Assembly (NCBI GenBank): GCA_963702215.1 | Contig: OY969726.1 | Coordinates: 3,288,609 to 3,352,608 of the forward strand | Direction: 5' to 3' | DNA: 64,000 nt | DNA from: an uncultured Bacteroidota bacterium | Lineage (GTDB): Bacteria; Bacteroidota; Ignavibacteria; Palsa-1295 | Position numbers and translations under genes: made by a program | Shown here: piece by piece, positions 1 through 17,462 of the stretch | How the letters are laid out: every line of letters begins with the position of its first letter | Numbering within the stretch: the stretch's first letter is position 1 | Notes under the pieces: generated by a model | What the model was told of the DNA's origin: nothing | Seen by the model: only the letters and a program-made list of their open reading frames with translations | Database searches by the model: none

Positions 1-428
1 ATGGCAAGATCATTCGGCAGTTCCCAAATTCCCTCATGGTTCTCCGAAATACCAAGCTCGCGTTCGGAGCAAAGCATTCCTTCGCTCGACTCGCCGCGAA
101 TTTTGGCTTTCTTTATTATGAATCCCTCGCCCAAATCAGCGCCGATTCTTGCAACCGCCACGCGCAAGCCTTCGCGCACATTCGGCGCGCCGCAGACGAT
201 GCGCAACGGCTCGCCATCGCCGATGGTAACTTTCGTGAGGTGCAGTTTATCCGCGTTCGGGTGCGGCAAAACTTCGAGCACTTCGCCGACGACGATGTTG
301 TCCCACCGTGCGCCCACGTGCTCGATCCCCTCGATTTCGAGGCCGAGCATCGTCAGCCGGTGCGCAAGATCATCTGGCGCAAATGGAACGGAGATATACT
401 CCGACAGCCAATTAAGAGAAATTCGCAT
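1..428 (-). CDS. pheT: phenylalanine--tRNA ligase beta subunit, N-terminal part; the gene runs off the window start
   Basis: Reverse-strand translation from the ATG at 428..426 gives MRISLNWLSEYISVPFAPDDLAHRLTMLGLEIEGIEHVGARWDNIVVGEVLEVLPHPNADKLHLTKVTIGDGEPL, which matches the PheT N-terminus (MKFSELWL...ITMAGLEVDGVE...VVGEVVE..HPNADKLRVTKV). No stop codon falls inside the window, so it is absent from the ORF track. The listed + strand ORFs at 1..480 and 36..434 are antisense artefacts. Confidence 0.75.
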   Translation of the reverse strand, partial: MRISLNWLSEYISVPFAPDDLAHRLTMLGLEIEGIEHVGARWDNIVVGEVLEVLPHPNADKLHLTKVTIGDGEPLRIVCGAPNVREGLRVAVARIGADLGEGFIIKKAKIRGESSEGMLCSERELGISENHEGIWELPNDLA

Positions 429-6091: not shown

Positions 6092-8863
6092 ATGAATATA
6101 GCAAGAATTCGCGGGCGAGAAATCGTCAAGCGCACTGTGGTTTTTCATTCCATTCTTTCCCGGCTTCGCGCCGGGACGCTCTTCGCTGTCGCGTTCCTCC
6201 TGGTTATCGGGGGCTATGCTGTTCTCGAAACGAGTGCGCATTCCGCCGGGATCACGGGATATACCCAAAAATCGACGAACGTCGGGTGTTACTGCCATTG
6301 CTCCTCGGCCAGCGGTGGCACCACGGTATCGATCACAACCAATGCGACGACGTTCTATACGGGCCAAACCTATCAGTTTACCGCGACGGTTTCGAACAGT
6401 GGCGAATCGGCTGCCGGAATCGACATCGCAACGGAATTTGGAACGTTGAGCGCCATCTCGGGACAGGGGCTCTGGCTATCGAGTGGGGAACTCACTCATT
6501 CAGCTCCCAAATCGCTCGCGGCGAGTTGGAACTTCAACTGGACCGCCCCTTCTTCACCGACCTACGACACCATTTTTGCGACCGGTAATGCCGTTAATGG
6601 CGATGGCGCTAATGATGGCGGAAATTGCACGGACAATTGGAACTTTGCCCCAAAGTATATTATCCATGTGGTCCCGGCACAAACGATGCGGCTTGCTTTC
6701 GGTCGAGGTTCGATCTTGCTGGGTTCTGTTCGCGTCGGCCACCGGGTTGCGGATTCGCTGCTGGTTCGCTCCACCGGCACGGGGGCGCTCACGATCAATT
6801 CGAGCGCGATGAAATCCGGGGCGCAATTTTCGAGGTACCCCAGCACGACTAATCGCACACTCGATGCCGGCACGATCGAAGTCGATAGCGCCATTTTTGC
6901 TCCCACGGCGCGGGGTACTTTCAACGACTCACTGATTTTTAGCACGAATTCCGATACCTTGCCCGAACAACGAACCGGTGTTTCTGTATCGGGTCAGGGA
7001 ATTCAAGCTATTTTTGCGGCGACAAATGGCACCAGCCTCTCCTTCGGAAACCTTCGTGTGGGCCGCACGGCTACCGATACGTTCCACTACTCGAATTCAG
7101 GCGACGATACGCTCTTTCTTCAAGCTCCAAGGATTTCGGGCAATGGGTTTTCCATCGTATCCGGCGGAACTGCCGATACTTTGCCGCCCAATCAAACAAG
7201 AAGCGTTGCCGTGCAGCTTGCGCCTGACGCGAAACAATCTTACAGCGGAACTTTATCTTTTACTGCTTCCGATGAGGTTACCACGCCAGCGGTGAGTTTG
7301 AGCGGAAATGGAACGCTCCCGCAAATCCAAGTTTTGTCTCGCCAAAACCTTGGGCAAATTCGTACAGGGCTGACCCTCGCCGGAACCGCTACATTCCAAA
7401 ACACCGGCAACGATACGCTGCATATTTCGAATGCGACCCTGACCCAGCTTTCGACAGAATTCTCATTGGGAGCCTACGATCAAGCCGTGGCCCCCGGTGC
7501 CATCGGAACGATTCACATTTCCTATACCGCAGACAGCGAGACCACGGACACTGCAACCCTGCATTTCATAACGGACGATCCCTCGGATTCCACGGTTGCA
7601 GTCACACTAACCGCGGCCGGGACTGCGCCGCACATGGCCATAACAGAGAACAGCGATACCCTCGATCTCGGCGAGGTCAAAGTGAATTCGAGCGTTACGC
7701 ACGACATTGCCGTTACCGATAATGGCATGGCTATCCTGACCCTCACCAACGTTGCAGCCGGCCCAGCGCCATTCGGTATTGCAGCGAATCCCGTTATTGT
7801 CGGCGCTGAGGGAACCGCCTATGTAACCGTAAGCTTTGCGCCCTTGACTGTGGGCACATTTTCTGGAATGCTCGTCATTCAAAGTGACGATCCCCAAAAT
7901 CCATCGGACACGGTTTATCTTTCCGGGCAGGGAATCAATAGTTCACTCACAATCTCTCCGGCCAGCGTTGCCTTCGGATCGATTTCGGTTTCCACCACGG
8001 CAGTGGATACGATCGAGTTGAGCAACACCGGTTCGGCCAGCCTGAATATCAATGGTTACGAGCTTTCTCCTGCCTCCGGCAGTTTTACGGTGGTCGATTC
8101 CTCGGCGCATCGGGTATCGGCGGGCGATTCGGTCAGCGTGATCGTGAGTTTCCATCCCGATACGTCAGGAAGCTATTCGGGAACCCTGACGCTGCTCACC
8201 GACGATGGCGGCGCGCCGGAGCGCACCATCGATCTTTCCGGGTATGGAGTTAAAGGCGCGCTTAGCCTCTCCGCTTCTTCCCTCGATTTCGGCAGCGTAC
8301 TCGTTGGCCGTGATTCGGCGATGAGGCTGATGCTTCGAAACAGCGGCCAGGCAAGCGTCACACTTAGTTCGATTAACTTCACCGGTCCCGGCGCCAGTGC
8401 CTTCAACGATGGTGCGTTTTCTACACCGTCGTCATTAACAGCCGGAGATTCAATCGCTTTGACGTTAACCTTCACGCCCTCCGCGTCCCAACTATATGAG
8501 GGAATGGTTCAGTTTATGCTTGGAGATGGGACAGATGTCGCCATTCCCATCAAAGGAGCTGGCGCGAGTGCGGAAGTTTCGTCGCCCAATTTTGGAAGCG
8601 AGGCGCTCTCATTCTCCATCACACCAAATCCCGCAGCAAATTTCGTTACCATCCATTCGACCGCCGAAAATGCCTCTGAAACACACCTGGATGTATTCGA
8701 TGCGAGCGGTCACGAAGTTCTTCACAAATCGCTCGGGATGCTGCCGGCGGGGGAGCACGATGTGGCCCTGCCGTTAACAACGCTCGTGAACGGCAGTTAC
8801 TTTGTCCGTATGAGGAATGGGAATGGCGATTGGGCGCAGCGAAGTTTGATTCTGGAGAAATAG
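6092..8863 (+). CDS. large secreted multi-Ig-like-repeat (choice-of-anchor-D-like) protein with a T9SS C-terminal sorting domain
   Basis: 923 aa. N-terminal TM/signal FAVAFLLVIGGYAVL. About 8 repeats of the L.FG.V.VG.....L...N.G...L.I.S pattern. C-terminus ...SFSITPNPAANFVTIHSTAENASETHLDVFDASGHEVLHKSLGMLPAGEHDVALPLTTLVNGSYFVRMRNGNGDWAQRSLILEK is a typical type-A T9SS C-terminal domain. Confidence 0.6.
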   Translation: MNIARIRGREIVKRTVVFHSILSRLRAGTLFAVAFLLVIGGYAVLETSAHSAGITGYTQKSTNVGCYCHCSSASGGTTVSITTNATTFYTGQTYQFTATVSNSGESAAGIDIATEFGTLSAISGQGLWLSSGELTHSAPKSLAASWNFNWTAPSSPTYDTIFATGNAVNGDGANDGGNCTDNWNFAPKYIIHVVPAQTMRLAFGRGSILLGSVRVGHRVADSLLVRSTGTGALTINSSAMKSGAQFSRYPSTTNRTLDAGTIEVDSAIFAPTARGTFNDSLIFSTNSDTLPEQRTGVSVSGQGIQAIFAATNGTSLSFGNLRVGRTATDTFHYSNSGDDTLFLQAPRISGNGFSIVSGGTADTLPPNQTRSVAVQLAPDAKQSYSGTLSFTASDEVTTPAVSLSGNGTLPQIQVLSRQNLGQIRTGLTLAGTATFQNTGNDTLHISNATLTQLSTEFSLGAYDQAVAPGAIGTIHISYTADSETTDTATLHFITDDPSDSTVAVTLTAAGTAPHMAITENSDTLDLGEVKVNSSVTHDIAVTDNGMAILTLTNVAAGPAPFGIAANPVIVGAEGTAYVTVSFAPLTVGTFSGMLVIQSDDPQNPSDTVYLSGQGINSSLTISPASVAFGSISVSTTAVDTIELSNTGSASLNINGYELSPASGSFTVVDSSAHRVSAGDSVSVIVSFHPDTSGSYSGTLTLLTDDGGAPERTIDLSGYGVKGALSLSASSLDFGSVLVGRDSAMRLMLRNSGQASVTLSSINFTGPGASAFNDGAFSTPSSLTAGDSIALTLTFTPSASQLYEGMVQFMLGDGTDVAIPIKGAGASAEVSSPNFGSEALSFSITPNPAANFVTIHSTAENASETHLDVFDASGHEVLHKSLGMLPAGEHDVALPLTTLVNGSYFVRMRNGNGDWAQRSLILEK

Positions 8864-10702: not shown

Positions 10703-11305
10703 GTGACTATTTTTCACTTTTCTCACTTTTTGTTGAGCCAAAATCCTGACAATGACCTTTTCTTGGTAGAGCAAGCTTCTTTTTCGTTGACGCAGGTGAT
10801 ACCGGAGACCGAGTTTCTTCGCTTTTATGAGGTTCATCGCGCGCGCTTAGAGCGGGCGATATTGAGCTACGCCCGCCGCGACCGGGAACTTGCGAAGGAC
10901 GCGCTTCAGCATGGACTCGCCGCCGCGCTCGAAAAGTTCCGAGACCGGGAACTCGATGAAGCGACGCAGGGAGAATTCCTGCGGTACACCATTACGTGTG
11001 CCGAACACTACATCCAGCACGAGTGGAAACAGAGCGGGCGAGAACCGATTATCAAAGACGATGACGATGCGCCTATCGACTACGATCCGGACGGGAACCT
11101 GATGCACGAACGATTGGAGCAATCCATTCGGGAACTGCCGGAGAGCAAGCGAAGGGCTATTCAAATCCGGTTTTTTTCGGATGAGAACCTGACGCTGGAA
11201 CAAGGCGCGGCACTTTTCGGAAAATCCGTGGCGACGTTCAAGCGGGAGCTGACGAAAGCGATGACGACACTGCGCCAAAAAATGGATACCGAGGTAATGG
11301 CATAA
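10703..11305 (+). CDS. RNA polymerase sigma-70 factor, ECF subfamily
   Basis: 200 aa. Region 2 (FLRFYEVHRARLERAILSYARRDRELAKDALQ) and region 4 HTH (LTLEQGAALFGKSVATFKRELTKAMTTLRQKM). Confidence 0.7.
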   Translation: MTIFHFSHFLLSQNPDNDLFLVEQASFSLTQVIPETEFLRFYEVHRARLERAILSYARRDRELAKDALQHGLAAALEKFRDRELDEATQGEFLRYTITCAEHYIQHEWKQSGREPIIKDDDDAPIDYDPDGNLMHERLEQSIRELPESKRRAIQIRFFSDENLTLEQGAALFGKSVATFKRELTKAMTTLRQKMDTEVMA

Positions 11306-12187
11306 ATGCAAACGATGACAGATATTGATTTCAACGGACACGGAGACGCGGAGTACCTCGACGAACTTTTCGCCGACTATAACACCGCTCTCGGAACGAA
11401 ACTGCTGCTGGATACGGAGGCGCTAAAGGTAATTTATGCAAACGCCGCACCTCTCCGGCCGATCCCCAAATCGGTTACCTGGAAAGGCTGGCGCAGAGCC
11501 GTTGGGCCTCTCTTACTCTTCGTTTGGGCTGCTGTGCTGATGTCGGCTGTTTGGCTGGACGCGCGATTCGAGGTTGCGGGCGAACAGGATTCCGTCCCAG
11601 CGACATTGCACACTGAGGCTTTACCGCAAGTTCAAAGATATTCCTTCGCGCCAATCGAATCCGGGCGTATAAGTTCGCCAAAGCCAATCAACAGCTCTGA
11701 TGCAGGAATGGAAAGCTCAATGCGTGGATCCTTGCCCGCGGCCTCGCAGCTCTTTCGAGCCTCCGCGCTAGTCTATGCCGACAATGCCGATCTCGACTCA
11801 GCCGTGATACACGATCCCAGCCTCGGGCCGGAATGGAGATTGGCCGACTGGAACGACATCGTAAATGTCAGCAAAGACCATCCGATCCAAGAACTTATCC
11901 ATTCGTTGAAGTGGGACTTGGACACGGGCACACATTTCCCGGTCGCGCGGAATCAATTCTGGCTCCAGTACAACGGAAGAAGCACGACACGCAGTGTCGA
12001 GCAGCATTATGGCATCGCTTCTAATGAAGAGAATTCACACAGGCATTATTTCGTCGCGCGATTTGACCACAGAGTGCCTGATAATTTCAGAGTTGTCGCA
12101 GGAATTGAGGATAATGAAATCGTTCTCGGATCATGGTATGACTGGAAGTTCCCGGTGCTCGCAGTAAGGAGAGAATCAGCTCGCTAG
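11306..12187 (+). CDS. putative anti-sigma factor: cytoplasmic N-domain, single TM helix and a periplasmic C-terminal domain
   Basis: Its start abuts the sigma stop (TAA-ATG). One TM helix (GPLLLFVWAAVLMSAVWL). The C-terminal domain (DLDSAV..RLADWNDI...HYFVARFDHRVP...IVLGSWYDWKF) is paralogous to the next gene. Confidence 0.45.
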   Translation: MQTMTDIDFNGHGDAEYLDELFADYNTALGTKLLLDTEALKVIYANAAPLRPIPKSVTWKGWRRAVGPLLLFVWAAVLMSAVWLDARFEVAGEQDSVPATLHTEALPQVQRYSFAPIESGRISSPKPINSSDAGMESSMRGSLPAASQLFRASALVYADNADLDSAVIHDPSLGPEWRLADWNDIVNVSKDHPIQELIHSLKWDLDTGTHFPVARNQFWLQYNGRSTTRSVEQHYGIASNEENSHRHYFVARFDHRVPDNFRVVAGIEDNEIVLGSWYDWKFPVLAVRRESAR

Positions 12188-12213
12188 TTTTCACTTGATG
12201 ATAATTACCTGAA

Positions 12214-12700
12214 ATGAAATCCACTATATTGACAATTTTGGTTCTTAGCGCGCTTCTCGTCGGTGGCTGCAGTGATTCAACCCAACCCTCTTCGGGCGGC
12301 AGCCTCCAATTCGCGACTACGAAAGAAATGTACTCGGAAACGGATAATCTCGACTCGGCAGTCAAGGCGGATCTCGGATCGAGTTACCGCGTGGCTGATT
12401 GGAACCGACGTGGAGGAATATTGCTATCACAACCCTGTGGACAGCCTCATTGCCCACCTCGGCTGGGACGTAATGGGCGCCGCAGGAAGTGATACCACTA
12501 AAGAAAATTTTTTCGTGACCTGGGATAGCCAAGGCTTTACGCCCGATGATCCATCCCGCCATTACTTCGCCACTCGTTTCGATCATACCGTGCCGAGCAG
12601 CTGGGCTGTCCTTGACCAAGTCGATAGCAACCGGATCGTGCTGGGGTCGTGGAATGGGGTGCGGTTCCGGGTGCTCGGGTTGAAAAACGTTTCTCAGTAA
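12214..12700 (+). CDS. lipoprotein carrying the same domain as the anti-sigma C-terminus, split by a frameshift
   Basis: ORF 12214..12492 (lipobox LSALLVGGCSDS; ...NLDSAVKADLGSSYRVADWN) and ORF 12263..12700 (...DVEEYCYHNPVDSLIAHLGWD...HYFATRFDHTVP...IVLGSWNGVRF) together align to the anti-sigma C-terminal domain. The frame switch lies near 12404..12410. Confidence 0.5.
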
Positions 12701-12720
12701 CAAAAAATCAAAACAATACA

Positions 12721-14073
12721 ATGAAATCAACGCTTCTTACACTCGCACTTTTCCTTGCCTTTGTTGTGTGCGCAAAGGCGCAGATACCGACCGATGCTAT
12801 TATCTACTTACGGCTTAACGGCAGCGCTAATGACGCGAGTGGGAATGGCTATAACGGAGTCATTTATGGTACACCCGCTCCGACGGAGGACAGGTTCGGT
12901 GTTCCGGATGGTGCCTATTACTTTAATGCCGGAATGGGTAGTACTGTTTATGGGACCACACCCGGAACGGACTTCATTGATATTCCGGGCACAGAGGGCC
13001 TTAACTTCACTACTGGCGGACTTTCGCTTTGTGGCTGGGTTGAATACTCAGGGTATCTCGATGATCAAGCGATAGTAACCAAGCATGACCCTTGCGGTAT
13101 TCAACAAGGCTATGGCATCGGAATTTGGCATAATCAAGCAGTTTTTATCTATCCCGGAGCCGGCTGCGGGACGGGCGATGATCGAATTCGTTCCGGTCAG
13201 ACGTATGCAGATGGACAATGGCATTTCGTTGTTGGAACTTATGACGGGACCACTTCCAAACTATACGTGGATGGCGTCATGATGAATTCAATTAACAATT
13301 CATATACATGTTACAACAATGGAACGATACGCGTTGCCCGAGCTCACGATTGTGCATTTTTCCCGGGTAAGATCGATGACGTAAGAATCTTCAGTCGGCC
13401 ACTTACGCAATCAGAAATCACATCTCTTTTCCAAGAGGGTAATTGTCTCCCGCCTACGATTTCTGTTTCGCTTTCGCCAAACACACTCTGGCCTCCGAAT
13501 AACAAGATGCAGACAATCACGGCGGATGTTACAACTGCGGGTAATTGCACTCCGCTCAGCGTTCAGTTTCTTTCCGTCACTGCGAATGAGTCGATCGACC
13601 CGAGCGATATCCAAGCGACTAATGGTGAAGATAACAGGACGTTTGAAGTGCGAACCTCACGAAATGGCTATGGGAATGGTCGAGTCTATACGGCAACCTA
13701 TATCGTAACCGATGCGTCGGGTAATTCCGATACCTCAATAGCTACGGTCACCGTCCCGCACGATCGGGGGCTCAGAAGACATCTCGATGGGAACGATCCT
13801 TCGAATAATGTGACGTTCACGGTTTCCGTCCATCCAAATCCTGTGAAAGATCTCGTGCGAATCTGCGTTCCGTACCTGGCCGAAGGAGTGCCGGCAATGG
13901 TTCAGGTAGTCAATGATGCAGGTGAGGCAGTGGCGCAGCTTTATAATGCGACACCTGAAGGCGATCTCGGTCTATGCCTAAGCCTCGATTGCTCGAAGCT
14001 TGCTGCGGGAACCTATTTTGCTTTGTTCAAGGACGGGAACCAGGAACAGTCGGTAAAATTCGCCAAACAGTGA
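12721..14073 (+). CDS. secreted LamG/concanavalin-A-like lectin-domain protein with a T9SS C-terminal sorting domain
   Basis: The ORF is listed from 12649. The likely start is MKSTLLTLALFLAFVVCAKAQ (signal peptide). LamG motifs DGQWHFVVGTYDGTTSKLYVDGV and DDVRIFSRPLTQSEI. C-terminal T9SS domain ...VHPNPVKDLVRICVP...GTYFALFKDGNQEQSVKFAKQ. Confidence 0.55.
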   Translation: MKSTLLTLALFLAFVVCAKAQIPTDAIIYLRLNGSANDASGNGYNGVIYGTPAPTEDRFGVPDGAYYFNAGMGSTVYGTTPGTDFIDIPGTEGLNFTTGGLSLCGWVEYSGYLDDQAIVTKHDPCGIQQGYGIGIWHNQAVFIYPGAGCGTGDDRIRSGQTYADGQWHFVVGTYDGTTSKLYVDGVMMNSINNSYTCYNNGTIRVARAHDCAFFPGKIDDVRIFSRPLTQSEITSLFQEGNCLPPTISVSLSPNTLWPPNNKMQTITADVTTAGNCTPLSVQFLSVTANESIDPSDIQATNGEDNRTFEVRTSRNGYGNGRVYTATYIVTDASGNSDTSIATVTVPHDRGLRRHLDGNDPSNNVTFTVSVHPNPVKDLVRICVPYLAEGVPAMVQVVNDAGEAVAQLYNATPEGDLGLCLSLDCSKLAAGTYFALFKDGNQEQSVKFAKQ

Positions 14074-14104
14074 ATGGCATTTTAATTCCAAACTTTTTGA
14101 TAGA

Positions 14105-14962
14105 ATGAAACAAACCACAACCACCCTTCTTCTTCTCCTCGCGCTCGCCACGAGCGCCAGCGCCCGCATCCGATACGTCGATCCGGCTGGCATACTCGGC
14201 AAGCAATCCATTCAAGCCGTTATCAATGACTGCGTTGATGGAGATACGGTGAGAATTCTCGAAGGAAGCTATCCTGAGAATATCGTGATTCCCTTAAATA
14301 TAGTGGTTCAAGGGGCAGGGGCGGAAAACACCTTCCTCCATTCGAGTACTGGTTACACATGTACAATAACATCGGGAAAGATCATGTGGCTGACCATCTC
14401 TGGCTCAGTTTCAGCAGTCTCAATGCAAGCAGCCACTGTTACAAATTGTATAATTGAGGGCTGTGGCGGCGATGGAATTGACATTGCTGGTAATGGCGCA
14501 AGCGTGGTGAACTGTATAATTCTCGGTAATGGCGTGAGCGGGATCGCGGGTGGAATCGCGGGAGATCCCTCGGGCACTTCGGTCTTTTCAGTTACCAACT
14601 GCATCCTAATTGATAATAAACAGAATTCAATTCACGGTGATTATAGCCAATCTGGCTCCGAACGGTACTGTATTGAGTTCAACAACGCGAGCGGAGCATG
14701 GGGTATGAAGCAAGTCAGTTGTTTGTCATCCGATCCAGTGCTTGCAAGCAATGGGACATGGCATCTTTCCTCTGGATCTCCTTGCATTGATGCTGGTGAT
14801 CCAACGTTGCTCGATCTCGATGGGACTCGCTCGGACATTGGTTATTACGGTGGCCCGGATGCACCACTCATGCCATACATAGCGCCACCTCAGTTCCCAG
14901 CCGGCAGCCTTCAGGCAGATGGCACTATTCAATTCAATCTGACAGGAAAGGTGGGGTATTGA
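14105..14962 (+). CDS. secreted right-handed parallel beta-helix repeat protein
   Basis: Signal peptide MKQTTTTLLLLLALATSASA. Repeated NCII.G.G...I motifs typical of pectin-lyase-fold repeats. Confidence 0.45.
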   Translation: MKQTTTTLLLLLALATSASARIRYVDPAGILGKQSIQAVINDCVDGDTVRILEGSYPENIVIPLNIVVQGAGAENTFLHSSTGYTCTITSGKIMWLTISGSVSAVSMQAATVTNCIIEGCGGDGIDIAGNGASVVNCIILGNGVSGIAGGIAGDPSGTSVFSVTNCILIDNKQNSIHGDYSQSGSERYCIEFNNASGAWGMKQVSCLSSDPVLASNGTWHLSSGSPCIDAGDPTLLDLDGTRSDIGYYGGPDAPLMPYIAPPQFPAGSLQADGTIQFNLTGKVGY

Positions 14963-14963
14963 G

Positions 14964-15785
14964 GTGGGTAAAGCAATCATATTCTTCATTCTGCTTGCAT
15001 GCTGTGTCAATGTCGCGCGAGCACAGCTTCAAACGATTTCGCAAGCGGAATACTTTATCGGAACCGATCCGGGCGAGGGAAACGGACATCCGTTGACGAT
15101 TCCAAAAGGCAATGCGGTTGTTGATACCGCTGCTTGGCACCAAGCAGGGCTGCCACAGCTTAGGTATGGCGAAGTGATTTATGTTCGTATTAAGAGTTCG
15201 GGTTTCCCAAAGCATAGTGATGGCAGTACCGTGCAGGGCGCGTGGAGCTTTCCTACCCCAGTCATATTTCCGACAACTGCTGTGCTACTTAACGCGCAAG
15301 CGAAAATTGTAAGACCGACACTACAATACCCGCTCCTCGAAAATTGGAACATTTTTCCTCTGAGTGGATCGTATGATTCTTCCGTGCAACAATTGCGCGT
15401 AAAAATTCCGGCAGACAGCTTGCTACCAGGCGACACGCTGGAAGTGCGCCTGCAAGGCAAGGACGAACTCTGGGGTGATTGGTCGCACATCCCCATCACG
15501 CAGGATCTGTTCGCGGGCGTTACGGATAACTCAGCATCATCGAACGCGAGCCTCGATATTTATCCGAATCCCGCTCAGAACGAATTCACGATAAGACTTA
15601 CGAATTACCCGAGCGGCCTGGTTCACTACGAAATCTCGGACGCGCTCGGAAGAACGGTGGAGCATGGCGACATGGCTTCCAGCACTCTTCCTCTTTCCAC
15701 GCGCGATCTTCCCGCTGGCGTGTTCACCTTCCGCGTGGTGGCGAATGGCTCCGCCGCCTCGCGGCAGTTCGTGGTGGCGAAGTAG
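14964..15785 (+). CDS. secreted protein with a T9SS C-terminal sorting domain
   Basis: Signal peptide. C-terminus LDIYPNPAQNEFTIRLTNYPSGLVHYEISDALGRTVEH...GVFTFRVVANGSAASRQFVVAK. The gene starts 2 nt after the previous gene. Confidence 0.5.
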   Translation: MGKAIIFFILLACCVNVARAQLQTISQAEYFIGTDPGEGNGHPLTIPKGNAVVDTAAWHQAGLPQLRYGEVIYVRIKSSGFPKHSDGSTVQGAWSFPTPVIFPTTAVLLNAQAKIVRPTLQYPLLENWNIFPLSGSYDSSVQQLRVKIPADSLLPGDTLEVRLQGKDELWGDWSHIPITQDLFAGVTDNSASSNASLDIYPNPAQNEFTIRLTNYPSGLVHYEISDALGRTVEHGDMASSTLPLSTRDLPAGVFTFRVVANGSAASRQFVVAK

Positions 15786-15806: not shown

Positions 15807-17462
15807 CTATGTTTCCATCATTTCCGCCACAATCGCGATCGGTGGGGAGCCGAAGGAAAGCAGTGTGTTATGGAAATCGTAGAGGGAAAAGTCGTCGCCG
15901 GATTGGCGAATGAGGCGGTCGCGGAGTTCCTTAATCTGGAATTTGCCGAGCGTGTAAAACAAATAGCCGGGATCGAATACGCCGCGCTCGGCTTCGCGCC
16001 GCGCGGCTACCGGATGCAATAGCGCTTTCTCTTCGAAGAGCTGCTGGGCTTCGGAAAGCGTCATTGTGCCAGAGTGTAATTCGATCGACGAAAGATACCG
16101 CGCCACACGAATAAGGGCCTCCTGAATATACGCCAGCCGGATACGCGCATCGCCGTTGCCCCATCCGGCTTCGAGCATCATTTCCTCGGTATAATGCGCC
16201 CAGCCTTCGATGAAGGCATAGGACCAAAATGTCTTTCCCACCTTACTCTTCAGCTTTTGAAGATGAAGGAATTGCACATAGTGCCCGGGATATGCTTCGT
16301 GGATGGAGACGATTTCGAGCACGGAGCGATTGAGTCCGTGCAAAAATTCCTTGCGTTTGGCTTCATCCCAATCGGGTTCCGGCAGCGTTATGTAATAAAA
16401 CGCCTCTGTGGCAACCTTTTCGAAGGCGCCAGGGCTGTTCATCGCAGCGAATGCCCAGCGCATGTGCGGCGGCGTTTCCTGCACGATGCACCGCACCTCG
16501 GATGGAACCGCGATAATATCTTCCCGAATGATAAAGTCACGAATGCGTTCGAGCATACGCTCCGTTTCCGAAAGGATCTTGGGTTCGCTAAAATGCTCGC
16601 TTTCGATATACGTATGGAAAACTTCCCGCGGGCTTAAATGGGAATCGATTTCCTCGCACACTTGGAATAATTCCAGCGTCAGCCGATCGAGCTCTGCACG
16701 TCCTTTATCCAGAAGGGTTTCGAGGGAATCGGTGATGAGTTCGCTCGTTCGAATAAAACGTTCGAGGCGGTCTGCCCCAAGCCGGAATGAATTATACATC
16801 GCATTCGGCAGTACCACTGTCTGCACCGCTTCGATGAAGCTTGAAACCGCAAGTTTCGCTCCCTGCATCGCACTGTTTAATTCCTCGAGAAGCCCGGAAT
16901 CCTCAATGGAAGGAAAAAACCGGTTGGCAATCGTATCCAGGAATTCGAGACGGCCCTGGAATACTTCGATGGCGGTTTCGACGATAGTTCGGTCGAGACG
17001 GGCGCTTAGGTTTTGGCGTGCTACGGCGAGAACGCGCGGGTACGTACGCAGCCGCGCCAGGACGGAGCGCATCCGCTGGCTAAGGGGCGCAAAATCGCGG
17101 TCGGTGAGGTGTGTAAGTTCCAGATGATCGTTATAGACCATCGGGTTCCATTCGAAATCCCTTAGCTCCGTAAGCCTGAAAATCTCGTCGCGCAACTTCC
17201 ACTCGATGGCGCGGCACTCGAACCGGCCGAGATCGTCGGCAGGGGAGCGCCCGTTTCCTCGAAAATCGGTCTCGTAGGTTTCGAGCGCACACCGAAGCTC
17301 ATGGAGATATTGCTCGCGGCGAGTCGAGCTAAAATCCTCGACATCGGCGTCATATTCGTGCAGGCCGAGCGATGAGGCCGCCGTGGGATAATAATCGAGA
17401 TACAGCGTGAGCACAAAATCTCGAAATTGTGCGAAGGTAAAAAATTTTCGTGGTTTGAGCAT
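15807..17462 (-). CDS. DUF885 family protein (putative metallopeptidase-like)
   Basis: 551 aa with the HEAYPGHYVQ motif characteristic of DUF885. Confidence 0.65.
   Translation of the reverse strand: MLKPRKFFTFAQFRDFVLTLYLDYYPTAASSLGLHEYDADVEDFSSTRREQYLHELRCALETYETDFRGNGRSPADDLGRFECRAIEWKLRDEIFRLTELRDFEWNPMVYNDHLELTHLTDRDFAPLSQRMRSVLARLRTYPRVLAVARQNLSARLDRTIVETAIEVFQGRLEFLDTIANRFFPSIEDSGLLEELNSAMQGAKLAVSSFIEAVQTVVLPNAMYNSFRLGADRLERFIRTSELITDSLETLLDKGRAELDRLTLELFQVCEEIDSHLSPREVFHTYIESEHFSEPKILSETERMLERIRDFIIREDIIAVPSEVRCIVQETPPHMRWAFAAMNSPGAFEKVATEAFYYITLPEPDWDEAKRKEFLHGLNRSVLEIVSIHEAYPGHYVQFLHLQKLKSKVGKTFWSYAFIEGWAHYTEEMMLEAGWGNGDARIRLAYIQEALIRVARYLSSIELHSGTMTLSEAQQLFEEKALLHPVAARREAERGVFDPGYLFYTLGKFQIKELRDRLIRQSGDDFSLYDFHNTLLSFGSPPIAIVAEMMET

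Follow-up and report, generated by a model that had tools for sequence, protein, structure and literature searches.

Pairs of extracytoplasmic function (ECF) sigma and anti-sigma factors are among the most abundant signalling devices of bacteria, and the input is unknown for most of them. The standard ECF anti-sigma factor crosses the membrane once, with its N-terminus inside and its C-terminal domain extracytoplasmic; anti-sigma domains can also be as short as two helices, as in the CnrY and NepR types. In the RpoE-RseA-RseB system of Escherichia coli, a periplasmic accessory protein binds the periplasmic domain of the anti-sigma factor and gates site-1 cleavage; in the SigI-RsgI systems of cellulolytic clostridia, an anti-sigma factor with an extracytoplasmic carbohydrate-binding module (CBM) senses an external polymer and induces genes for secreted proteins; and in the RsiV/SigV system, the extracytoplasmic domain of the anti-sigma factor binds its ligand (lysozyme) directly, triggering site-1 cleavage. 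Here, a stretch of 64,000 nucleotides from an uncultured Bacteroidota bacterium (GTDB lineage Ignavibacteria, Palsa-1295; assembly GCA_963702215.1, contig OY969726.1, positions 3,288,609 to 3,352,608; hereafter the window, whose own numbering is used throughout) was analysed around a locus in which genes for an ECF-type sigma factor, a single-pass anti-sigma-like membrane protein and a lipoprotein that repeats the periplasmic domain of the membrane protein stand directly upstream of genes for secreted proteins, one of which carries a type IX secretion system (T9SS) sorting domain.

By sequence, this Ignavibacteriota system is not a member of the RseA/RseB, RsgI/SigI, RsiV or PorXY-SigP families. 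With RpoE-RseA-RseB it shares the order of sigma factor, single-pass anti-sigma factor and periplasmic accessory protein, and gating of cleavage is a role proposed below for the lipoprotein; RseB, unlike the protein described here, is not a lipoprotein and not paralogous to the RseA domain, neither RseA nor RseB has a lectin fold, and here the operon would run on into genes for secreted cargo. No Pfam or NCBIfam match pointed to RseB/MucB homology of the lipoprotein, and the likeness is one of gene order and proposed role only. SigI-RsgI is similar in having a sensor of carbohydrate-binding type on the anti-sigma factor and in controlling secreted proteins, whereas sigma-I is not an ECF factor, the hosts are Gram-positive, the sensors (CBM, PA14 and GH) are unrelated, and there is no neighbouring free paralogue. 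RsiV/SigV also has a receptor-type anti-sigma factor, but with another fold and ligand, no accessory paralogue and a Gram-positive host. Pfam and PDB profile searches gave no sequence-level relation to the C-type lectin-like domains of invasin (D5), Legionella Lcl (C-terminal domain) or Bdellovibrio Bd2740 (fibre tip); to our knowledge, none of these bacterial domains serves as an anti-sigma sensor, and literature searches on lectin-type anti-sigma factors found nothing relevant; a paper listed for the SigI-RsgI systems (PMC6582324) was among the results.

The PorXY-SigP-PorA system of Porphyromonas gingivalis is described as an ECF sigma pathway tied to the T9SS (PMC4800418, PMC7712824, PMC12152298), with the T9SS cargo PorA as a ligand of PorXY-SigP signalling (PMC7712824, PMC12152298). 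It is like the present locus in being an ECF pathway of the Fibrobacteres-Chlorobi-Bacteroidetes (FCB) group tied to the T9SS, and it offers a precedent for feedback of cargo on an ECF pathway; it differs in its two-component input, the absence of a transmembrane anti-sigma factor, its targets in the secretion machinery, and the absence of a lectin-fold sensor.

The triad and its shared periplasmic domain

The core of the locus comprises the following features (ORF, open reading frame; pLDDT, predicted local distance difference test; L001 and L002, two other assemblies, and L011, a related locus, all described below):

10725..10770, plus strand: block conserved with L011 upstream of the sigma start (TTTTTGTTGAGCCAA...TTGGTAG), from a pairwise upstream alignment; candidate promoter only
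10797..11305, plus strand: ECF-type sigma factor gene (ORF open from GTG 10703; probable start GTG 10797)
11315..12187, plus strand: gene for a single-pass anti-sigma-like membrane protein of 290 aa, P0001 (ORF open from ATG 11306; probable start ATG 11315)
11480..11572, plus strand: transmembrane helix, residues 56-86 (hydropathy window 61-85; AlphaFold2 helix, pLDDT 83-92)
11573..11740, plus strand: probably disordered periplasmic linker, residues 87-142 (pLDDT 50-63, without secondary structure)
11741..12184, plus strand: periplasmic domain of predicted C-type lectin fold, ~145 residues
12214..12700, plus strand: lipoprotein gene, encoding the paralogous domain of predicted lectin fold, broken here by a one-base insertion
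12403..12404, plus strand: extra A at the site of the frameshift (AA here, single A in L001 and L002 by DNA alignment)

The periplasmic domain of the anti-sigma-like protein recurs in the neighbouring lipoprotein, which consists of little more than a second, long-diverged copy. BLASTP of residues 145-291 of the former against residues 28-160 of the lipoprotein, with its reading frame repaired, gave 32% identity over 147 columns (E = 4e-24), a homology far above chance in this comparison. Further copies were found neither elsewhere in the 64-kb window nor in the third genes of the related loci L010, L011 and L013. No model of Pfam-A 2025 or NCBIfam 20 matched the domain in the window copies, in 10 typical family members or in 11 anti-sigma homologues, and a word-indexed homologue search with the full anti-sigma protein returned only the self-match.

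An exhaustive HMMER search with a two-sequence profile against 1.84 billion representatives (clusters at 50% identity) yielded 491 clusters at E ≤ 1e-3, 147 of them at E ≤ 1e-10. Nearly all matches open with a lipobox or signal peptide, and the majority are found outside sigma contexts. Some consist of one domain only (145-190 aa); others are tandem repeats, fuse the domain to CarboxypepD_reg domains and T9SS tails, carry up to 3-4 copies in giant surface proteins, or combine a zinc ribbon, a membrane helix and the domain. The anti-sigma layout is found in about ten cluster representatives. Among P0011, P0012, P0098 and P0107 are giants of 3361 aa and 1177 aa with 3-4 domain copies, and proteins with a zinc ribbon and membrane helix N-terminal to the domain; the latter architecture may represent another transmembrane sensor family that uses the lectin-fold domain. 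The few members with organism names come from Ignavibacteriota, Poribacteria and Balneolaceae, database names, where given, are 'hypothetical protein' (Poribacteria, Balneolaceae), and two orphan members lie in unrelated neighbourhoods from which a sigma gene is absent. As far as these searches reach, the domain is unnamed, yet neither rare nor sigma-specific. Its definition as an unannotated bacterial family of lectin fold, spread over some 500 sequence clusters of secreted and surface proteins, is the most useful by-product of the analysis.

For the fold, an AlphaFold2 model of the intact lipoprotein was built from a 51-sequence alignment (mean pLDDT 88.5, ~97 across the domain), and the domain showed a structural match to solved C-type lectin-like domains. 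Foldseek against the PDB returned nothing significant, the best match being a snake-venom C-type lectin (E = 0.37), and a PDB sequence-profile search with the domain gave nothing under E = 0.19. A check independent of the models came from cysteine columns: in the wider family, the cysteine of the first-helix column occurred together with that of the last-strand column in 44 of 47 cases, which fits the disulfide from first helix to last strand that is typical of the C-type lectin-like fold. Both cysteines are lost in the anti-sigma and lipoprotein subfamily, window copies included. A disulfide from the second-helix cysteine (Cys70 of the lipoprotein) to the last strand was also considered and rejected, as the two did not co-occur (9 vs 21). 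Lectin_C matched no member, the EPN, QPD and WND sugar/Ca motifs were absent on reading the sequences, and the conserved 'ADWND' is found where the second helix begins and not in strand 4. On its predicted structure, the domain was filed as a C-type lectin-like fold and not as a member of the Lectin_C family, and its ligand may be either a glycan or a protein. For an unnamed sensor domain, this narrows the ligand to a class that can be tested, namely glycans or protein surfaces.

For the sigma factor gene, TIGR02937 (sigma70-ECF) matched 10703-11305 with E = 5.4e-11 and 42.4 bits over model positions 6-165 of 165, just under the curated cut-off of 42.9, and Pfam Sigma70_r4 and r2 matched weakly, under their gathering scores; the sigma genes in the same position of L004, L013 and L017 have recorded Sigma70_r2 and r4_2 matches. 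The closest orthologue, a 168-aa sigma factor in L011, is 65% identical in an alignment that begins at residue 33 of the window ORF. Since the first ~32 codons have no counterpart in the sigma genes of related loci, the start is likely to be GTG 10797, giving ~168 aa, a length that fits the ECF sigma class, and on these matches the first ORF probably encodes an ECF-type sigma factor. The conserved block at 10725-10770, whose counterpart in L011 lies at ~1105-1150, may be an autoregulated promoter; its TTGAGCCAA motif showed no enrichment elsewhere in the window.

For the anti-sigma-like protein, the ORF follows the sigma stop codon (11303-11305) in the same orientation, with ATG codons at 11306 and 11315, as the corresponding genes do in L003, L004, L006/7, L010, L011, L013 and L017, where the pair is likewise adjacent and co-oriented; an identical protein is present in the database. 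The AlphaFold2 model has helices at residues 12-26 and 34-42, a membrane helix at 56-86, a disordered stretch at 87-142 and a folded domain at 143-290, and hydropathy and the model alike gave one membrane helix, after which the C-terminal domain is extracytoplasmic. The linker (residues 87-142), which differs in length and sequence among homologues, is a candidate site of regulated cleavage. No N-terminal anti-sigma domain (zf-HC2/RsrA-like, RskA, FecR and others) was matched by Pfam or NCBIfam among 11 homologues, with Pfam read up to E = 1, and the N-terminal ~55 residues were modelled as two short helices with moderate confidence (pLDDT about 65-70). Since this region has no family match and a model of moderate confidence, the label 'anti-sigma' rests on context and topology.

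The lipoprotein gene at 12214-12700 spans 487 bases in two frames, 12214-12492 and 12263-12700, with the signal peptide, the lipobox LLVGGC and 'NLDSAV..RVADWN' in the first and 'HYFATRFDHTVP...IVLGSWNGVRF' in the second. At 12401-12406 the window has GGAACC against GGACC in L001 and L002, which are independent Logan assemblies from other sequencing runs, found via the identical anti-sigma protein; both encode an intact lipoprotein of 161 aa and are otherwise 100% identical to the window over 530 bp. Five related loci carry an intact lipoprotein gene (158-163 aa) and, judged by these alleles, the gene is clearly functional in the population; the databases have the intact protein of this allele from L001 and L002 only, not from the NCBI/ENA record with this anti-sigma gene. 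A programmed frameshift at 12403 was rejected, as there is no slippery sequence and the base is simply missing in the two other assemblies. Comparison of the window with L001 across 4.2 kb shows three single-base indels (12403, 13602 and 13785): the first breaks the window, and at the other two the LamG gene that follows the lipoprotein gene is intact in the window and broken in L001. Since both assemblies are broken by indels at different sites, indel errors are plausible in either, and the extra A at 12403/12404 reflects either an error of assembly or loss of the gene in this strain. The extra bases of the window at 13602 and 13785 (~2958 and ~3140 in L001) lie at sites that are not homopolymers; the LamG gene reads through in the window (450 aa, with a C-terminal tail) and is split in L001 into ORFs of 328 aa and 76 aa. 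A frameshift in a metagenome-derived genome can in this way hide in a gene read by eye.

An earlier reading of the window from its letters and ORFs (the sequence-only reading) had proposed the ECF sigma factor, which the near-threshold profile match supports with a later start, and the recurrence of one domain in the membrane protein and the lipoprotein, which the alignment of the repaired frame confirms; the motifs that it quoted and the lipobox are all present. It had taken the lipoprotein as one ORF, which is incorrect, since the motifs quoted for it lie in different frames. Its anti-sigma layout holds for the one helix and the folded C-terminal domain, while the N-terminal region lacks a match to an anti-sigma family, and its view that the domain could not be assigned is right for Pfam-A and NCBIfam families but not at the level of the fold.

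Conservation of the triad and its cargo

Downstream of the triad, the window carries three further genes:

12721..14073, plus strand: LamG (concanavalin-like) secreted protein, first cargo gene (Laminin_G_3, E = 1.6e-24)
14105..14962, plus strand: right-handed beta-helix secreted protein with a signal peptide (Beta_helix, 25.6 bits against a cut-off of 25.9)
14964..15785, plus strand: T9SS type A cargo protein (Por_Secre_tail, 35.3 bits against a cut-off of 27; TIGR04183, 33.7 bits against a cut-off of 23)

Every sizeable ORF in the plus-strand block 10703-15785 is co-oriented and tightly packed, with successive gaps of 0, 26, 20, 31 and 1 bp, and the block is ended by a convergent gene on the minus strand (15807-17462). 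A generic promoter and terminator scan, at background level overall, found no plus-strand terminator-like site in 11306-15785. The tight spacing and the absence of a plus-strand terminator in that interval are the grounds for reading ~10797-15785 as a six-gene operon of an Ignavibacteriota bacterium, centred on the ECF sigma factor and the single-pass anti-sigma factor, a reading that shares the slightly favourable standing of the whole explanation given below. All three downstream proteins have a signal peptide. Only the product of 14964-15785 scored above the thresholds for T9SS C-terminal domains; that of 12721-14073 is sub-threshold (Por_Secre_tail 25.0 bits against 27, residues 370-446 of 450; second tail model 16.6 against 23), with its match at the extreme C-terminus, and no T9SS tail or sorting domain was detected by Pfam or NCBIfam in that of 14105-14962. 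If co-transcribed, these secreted proteins would form a candidate regulon that is small and defined, in a phylum for which there is almost no genetics.

For the window and related loci, the gene upstream of the anti-sigma-like gene, the gene directly downstream and what follows were:

Window: sigma gene; paralogous lipoprotein (frameshifted); LamG, beta-helix and T9SS-tailed proteins
L003/L008: sigma gene; paralogous lipoprotein; 801-aa T9SS-tailed protein
L004/L009: sigma gene; paralogous lipoprotein; 849-aa T9SS-tailed protein
L006/L007: sigma gene; paralogous lipoprotein; fragmented LamG/Ig gene with T9SS tail
L017: sigma gene; paralogous lipoprotein; 607-aa LamG protein
L010: sigma gene; different, 320-aa lipoprotein; beta-helix and T9SS proteins
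L011/L012: sigma gene; 538-aa Trypsin_2 protease; contig end
L013: sigma gene; 950-aa protein; contig end
L018: 38-aa fragment only; unrelated partial ORF; contig end

Organism names are given for L008-L010, among which are the contigs of L003 and L004; these loci come from metagenome-assembled genomes of Ignavibacteriota/Ignavibacteriae. In each of the eight lineages whose upstream sequence is readable, an ECF sigma gene lies 5' of the anti-sigma-like gene, and the paralogous lipoprotein lies directly 3' of the anti-sigma-like gene in five of nine lineages (window, L003, L004, L006/7 and L017). Since it is missing beside the pair in the remaining four, the lipoprotein is not essential to the module and is better regarded as optional. 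The five lipoprotein-clade genes with known context all follow immediately after a lectin-domain anti-sigma gene and never lie elsewhere. As cargo, four of the five triad loci (window, L003, L004 and L006) have a T9SS-tailed protein; L017, the fifth, has a LamG protein. In L006, a fragmented homologue of the window LamG protein (45-58% identity) comes after the lipoprotein, and the LamG protein in the same place in L017 is a homologue as well; L006 1743-4472 holds four successive short ORFs (147, 167, 209 and 367 aa; LamG, Ig-like, T9SS tail), which look like one large cargo gene split by frameshifts in the metagenome contig. In L010, orthologues of the window beta-helix protein (45%) and T9SS protein (53%) lie downstream of the pair. 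In L011 (2589-4205; also in L012), the lipoprotein's place is taken by a gene for a 538-aa Trypsin_2 (DegP/DegS-type) protease, whose product is a candidate site-1 protease for such anti-sigma factors.

The sequence-only reading had placed the triad directly upstream of secreted cargo, and this arrangement recurs in all five lineages that keep the triad, some of the cargo being orthologous to that of the window. It had counted all three downstream proteins as T9SS-type, which stands for the last, falls below threshold for the first and finds no tail in the second. The co-occurrence of the domain with ECF sigma factors that it had suggested looking for holds for the anti-sigma lineages, in every readable case, and not for the family, most of whose 491 clusters lie outside sigma contexts. 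A widespread named domain together with an unconserved lipoprotein, which it had given as the outcome that would speak against it, was not what was found: the domain is unnamed and the lipoprotein is kept in five lineages.

When the domains were placed in a neighbour-joining tree, the lipoproteins grouped in a single tight clade (54-78% identity), apart from three anti-sigma subclades, and no lipoprotein was nearest to its own neighbouring anti-sigma domain, by which an origin of the lipoprotein as a recent duplicate of that domain was rejected. No other part of the wider family is as close to the anti-sigma domains as the lipoprotein clade, and the anti-sigma partners of the five genes of this clade belong to three different subclades. 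Between the window and L003, the lipoproteins are 78% identical, the sigma factors 25% and the anti-sigma proteins about 28-35%. This pattern implies that either the sigma/anti-sigma pair or the lipoprotein-cargo cassette was exchanged between paralogous loci, and on these identities the free copy of the domain is old, is more constrained than the tethered copies, and was combined with different sigma/anti-sigma paralogues.

Proposed mechanism and alternatives

The favoured explanation, to which we give a little better than an even chance, is that the anti-sigma factor acts as a receptor of lectin type, is assisted by an accessory paralogue and controls the six-gene operon to which it belongs; the parts of this explanation computed here are the identity of the sigma factor, the anti-sigma-like topology, the homology and fold of the periplasmic domains, the operon-like order and the synteny of the cargo. 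In the resting state, the two-helix cytoplasmic part (residues 1-55) would tether the sigma factor at the membrane, and the lectin-fold periplasmic domain would be the receptor for a glycan or protein, possibly derived from the cell envelope or from T9SS cargo. The lipoprotein paralogue would act on the same input as the anti-sigma domain: it might pair with that domain, in the way that lectin-like receptor domains frequently pair, and shield the linker (87-142) from a site-1 protease, or it might bind the same ligand and so set a threshold. The sequence-only reading had likewise suggested that the free paralogue may be a competitor, co-sensor or decoy. Ligand-dependent loss of protection would lead to proteolysis of the anti-sigma factor and free the sigma factor, which would transcribe its own operon, secreted proteins included. 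The Trypsin_2 gene in the third position of L011 is suggestive of control by proteolysis. A narrower version, in which the paralogue pair is a switch and the free copy heterodimerises or competes with the tethered copy for an envelope or cargo ligand, is speculative and on balance unlikely; if it were true, the cell would gauge how far its own secreted T9SS surface proteins, or an external glycan, are occupied, and we know of no description of such a 'self-paralogue decoy' principle for ECF signalling. The principle would draw on the unnamed lectin-fold family, which also serves widely as a module for binding at surfaces. Whether a second sensor copy modulates signalling can be approached experimentally in a simple way through the conserved free paralogue.

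Weighing against the favoured explanation are the frameshift of the lipoprotein gene in the window, the four of nine lineages in which the lipoprotein is not adjacent to the pair (that of the closest sigma orthologue, L011, among them), and the N-terminal region of the membrane protein, which has no match to a known anti-sigma family and is modelled with moderate confidence. The lipoprotein tree also does not track the anti-sigma tree, which weakens the case for a tightly co-evolving heterodimer; the functional association of the two survives the exchanges and is not weakened by them. The same incongruence with the sigma and anti-sigma trees would suit a lipoprotein that stands outside the sensor, as the first product of the regulon, an envelope lectin-fold lipoprotein that works with the T9SS cargo in binding, anchoring or handling the same glycan or substrate, the domain being common to both proteins because the same class of molecule is recognised. 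This is a doubtful alternative, though one to be taken seriously: the domain often occurs free, as a lipoprotein or a secreted module, where no sigma gene is close by, the lipoprotein accompanies LamG in the window, L006 and L017, and the sigma/anti-sigma pair occurs without the lipoprotein in four of nine lineages, but a lectin-domain anti-sigma gene comes immediately before each of the five lipoprotein-clade genes whose context is known, and their clade is the part of the wider family nearest to the anti-sigma domains.

That the lipoprotein is a true pseudogene in this strain, leaving a two-component module of sigma and anti-sigma factor as in the relatives without it, is improbable. The one-base insertion at 12403/12404, the presence of the intact protein in two Logan assemblies only and not in the NCBI/ENA record of this genome, and the existence of lipoprotein-less lineages would all agree with decay, whereas the 530 bp compared match the intact alleles at 100% identity once that base is set aside, and show no other sign of decay, and the other two of the three indels in 4.2 kb break L001, which makes indel errors in either assembly plausible. 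Less probable again, and a long shot, is that the 290-aa membrane protein is not an anti-sigma factor at all, being a positive regulator of the sigma factor or an unrelated lectin-type receptor that is merely co-transcribed with it. The protein matches no anti-sigma domain family, and its cytoplasmic part has only ~55 residues, modelled with moderate confidence; against this, in the window its ORF directly adjoins the sigma stop codon, L003, L013 and L018 have overlapping gene calls for the two, its position is kept in every lineage with readable upstream sequence, across sigma identities of only 19-25%, and an N-in, single-pass protein with an extracytoplasmic C-terminal domain has the standard layout of an anti-sigma factor.

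Neighbouring genes

The neighbours of the window triad (a LysE exporter and a lipoprotein) differ from those of the L003 and L004 triads. In the latter two (L003 3757-6382; L004 3707-6312, minus strand), a second, divergent gene with sigma-70 r2/r4 regions (215-219 aa) lies directly upstream of the triad; it adjoins anmK and dnaA, and two unannotated genes, for proteins of about 430 aa and 210 aa, come after it. BREX genes (BrxA/BrxB) adjoin the triad of L017 (1904-3318), an IS66-family transposase adjoins the pair in L013 (2470-5088), and on a second contig an IS66 transposase lies near lipoprotein-LamG genes; there are hints in these neighbours that the triad modules may sit in variable or mobile regions. 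Just upstream of the window locus, with two minus-strand genes in between, the plus strand at 6092-8863 encodes a secreted protein of 923 aa with repeated Ig-like domains of HYDIN/ASH/DUF1573 type and a T9SS C-terminal sorting domain (33 bits).

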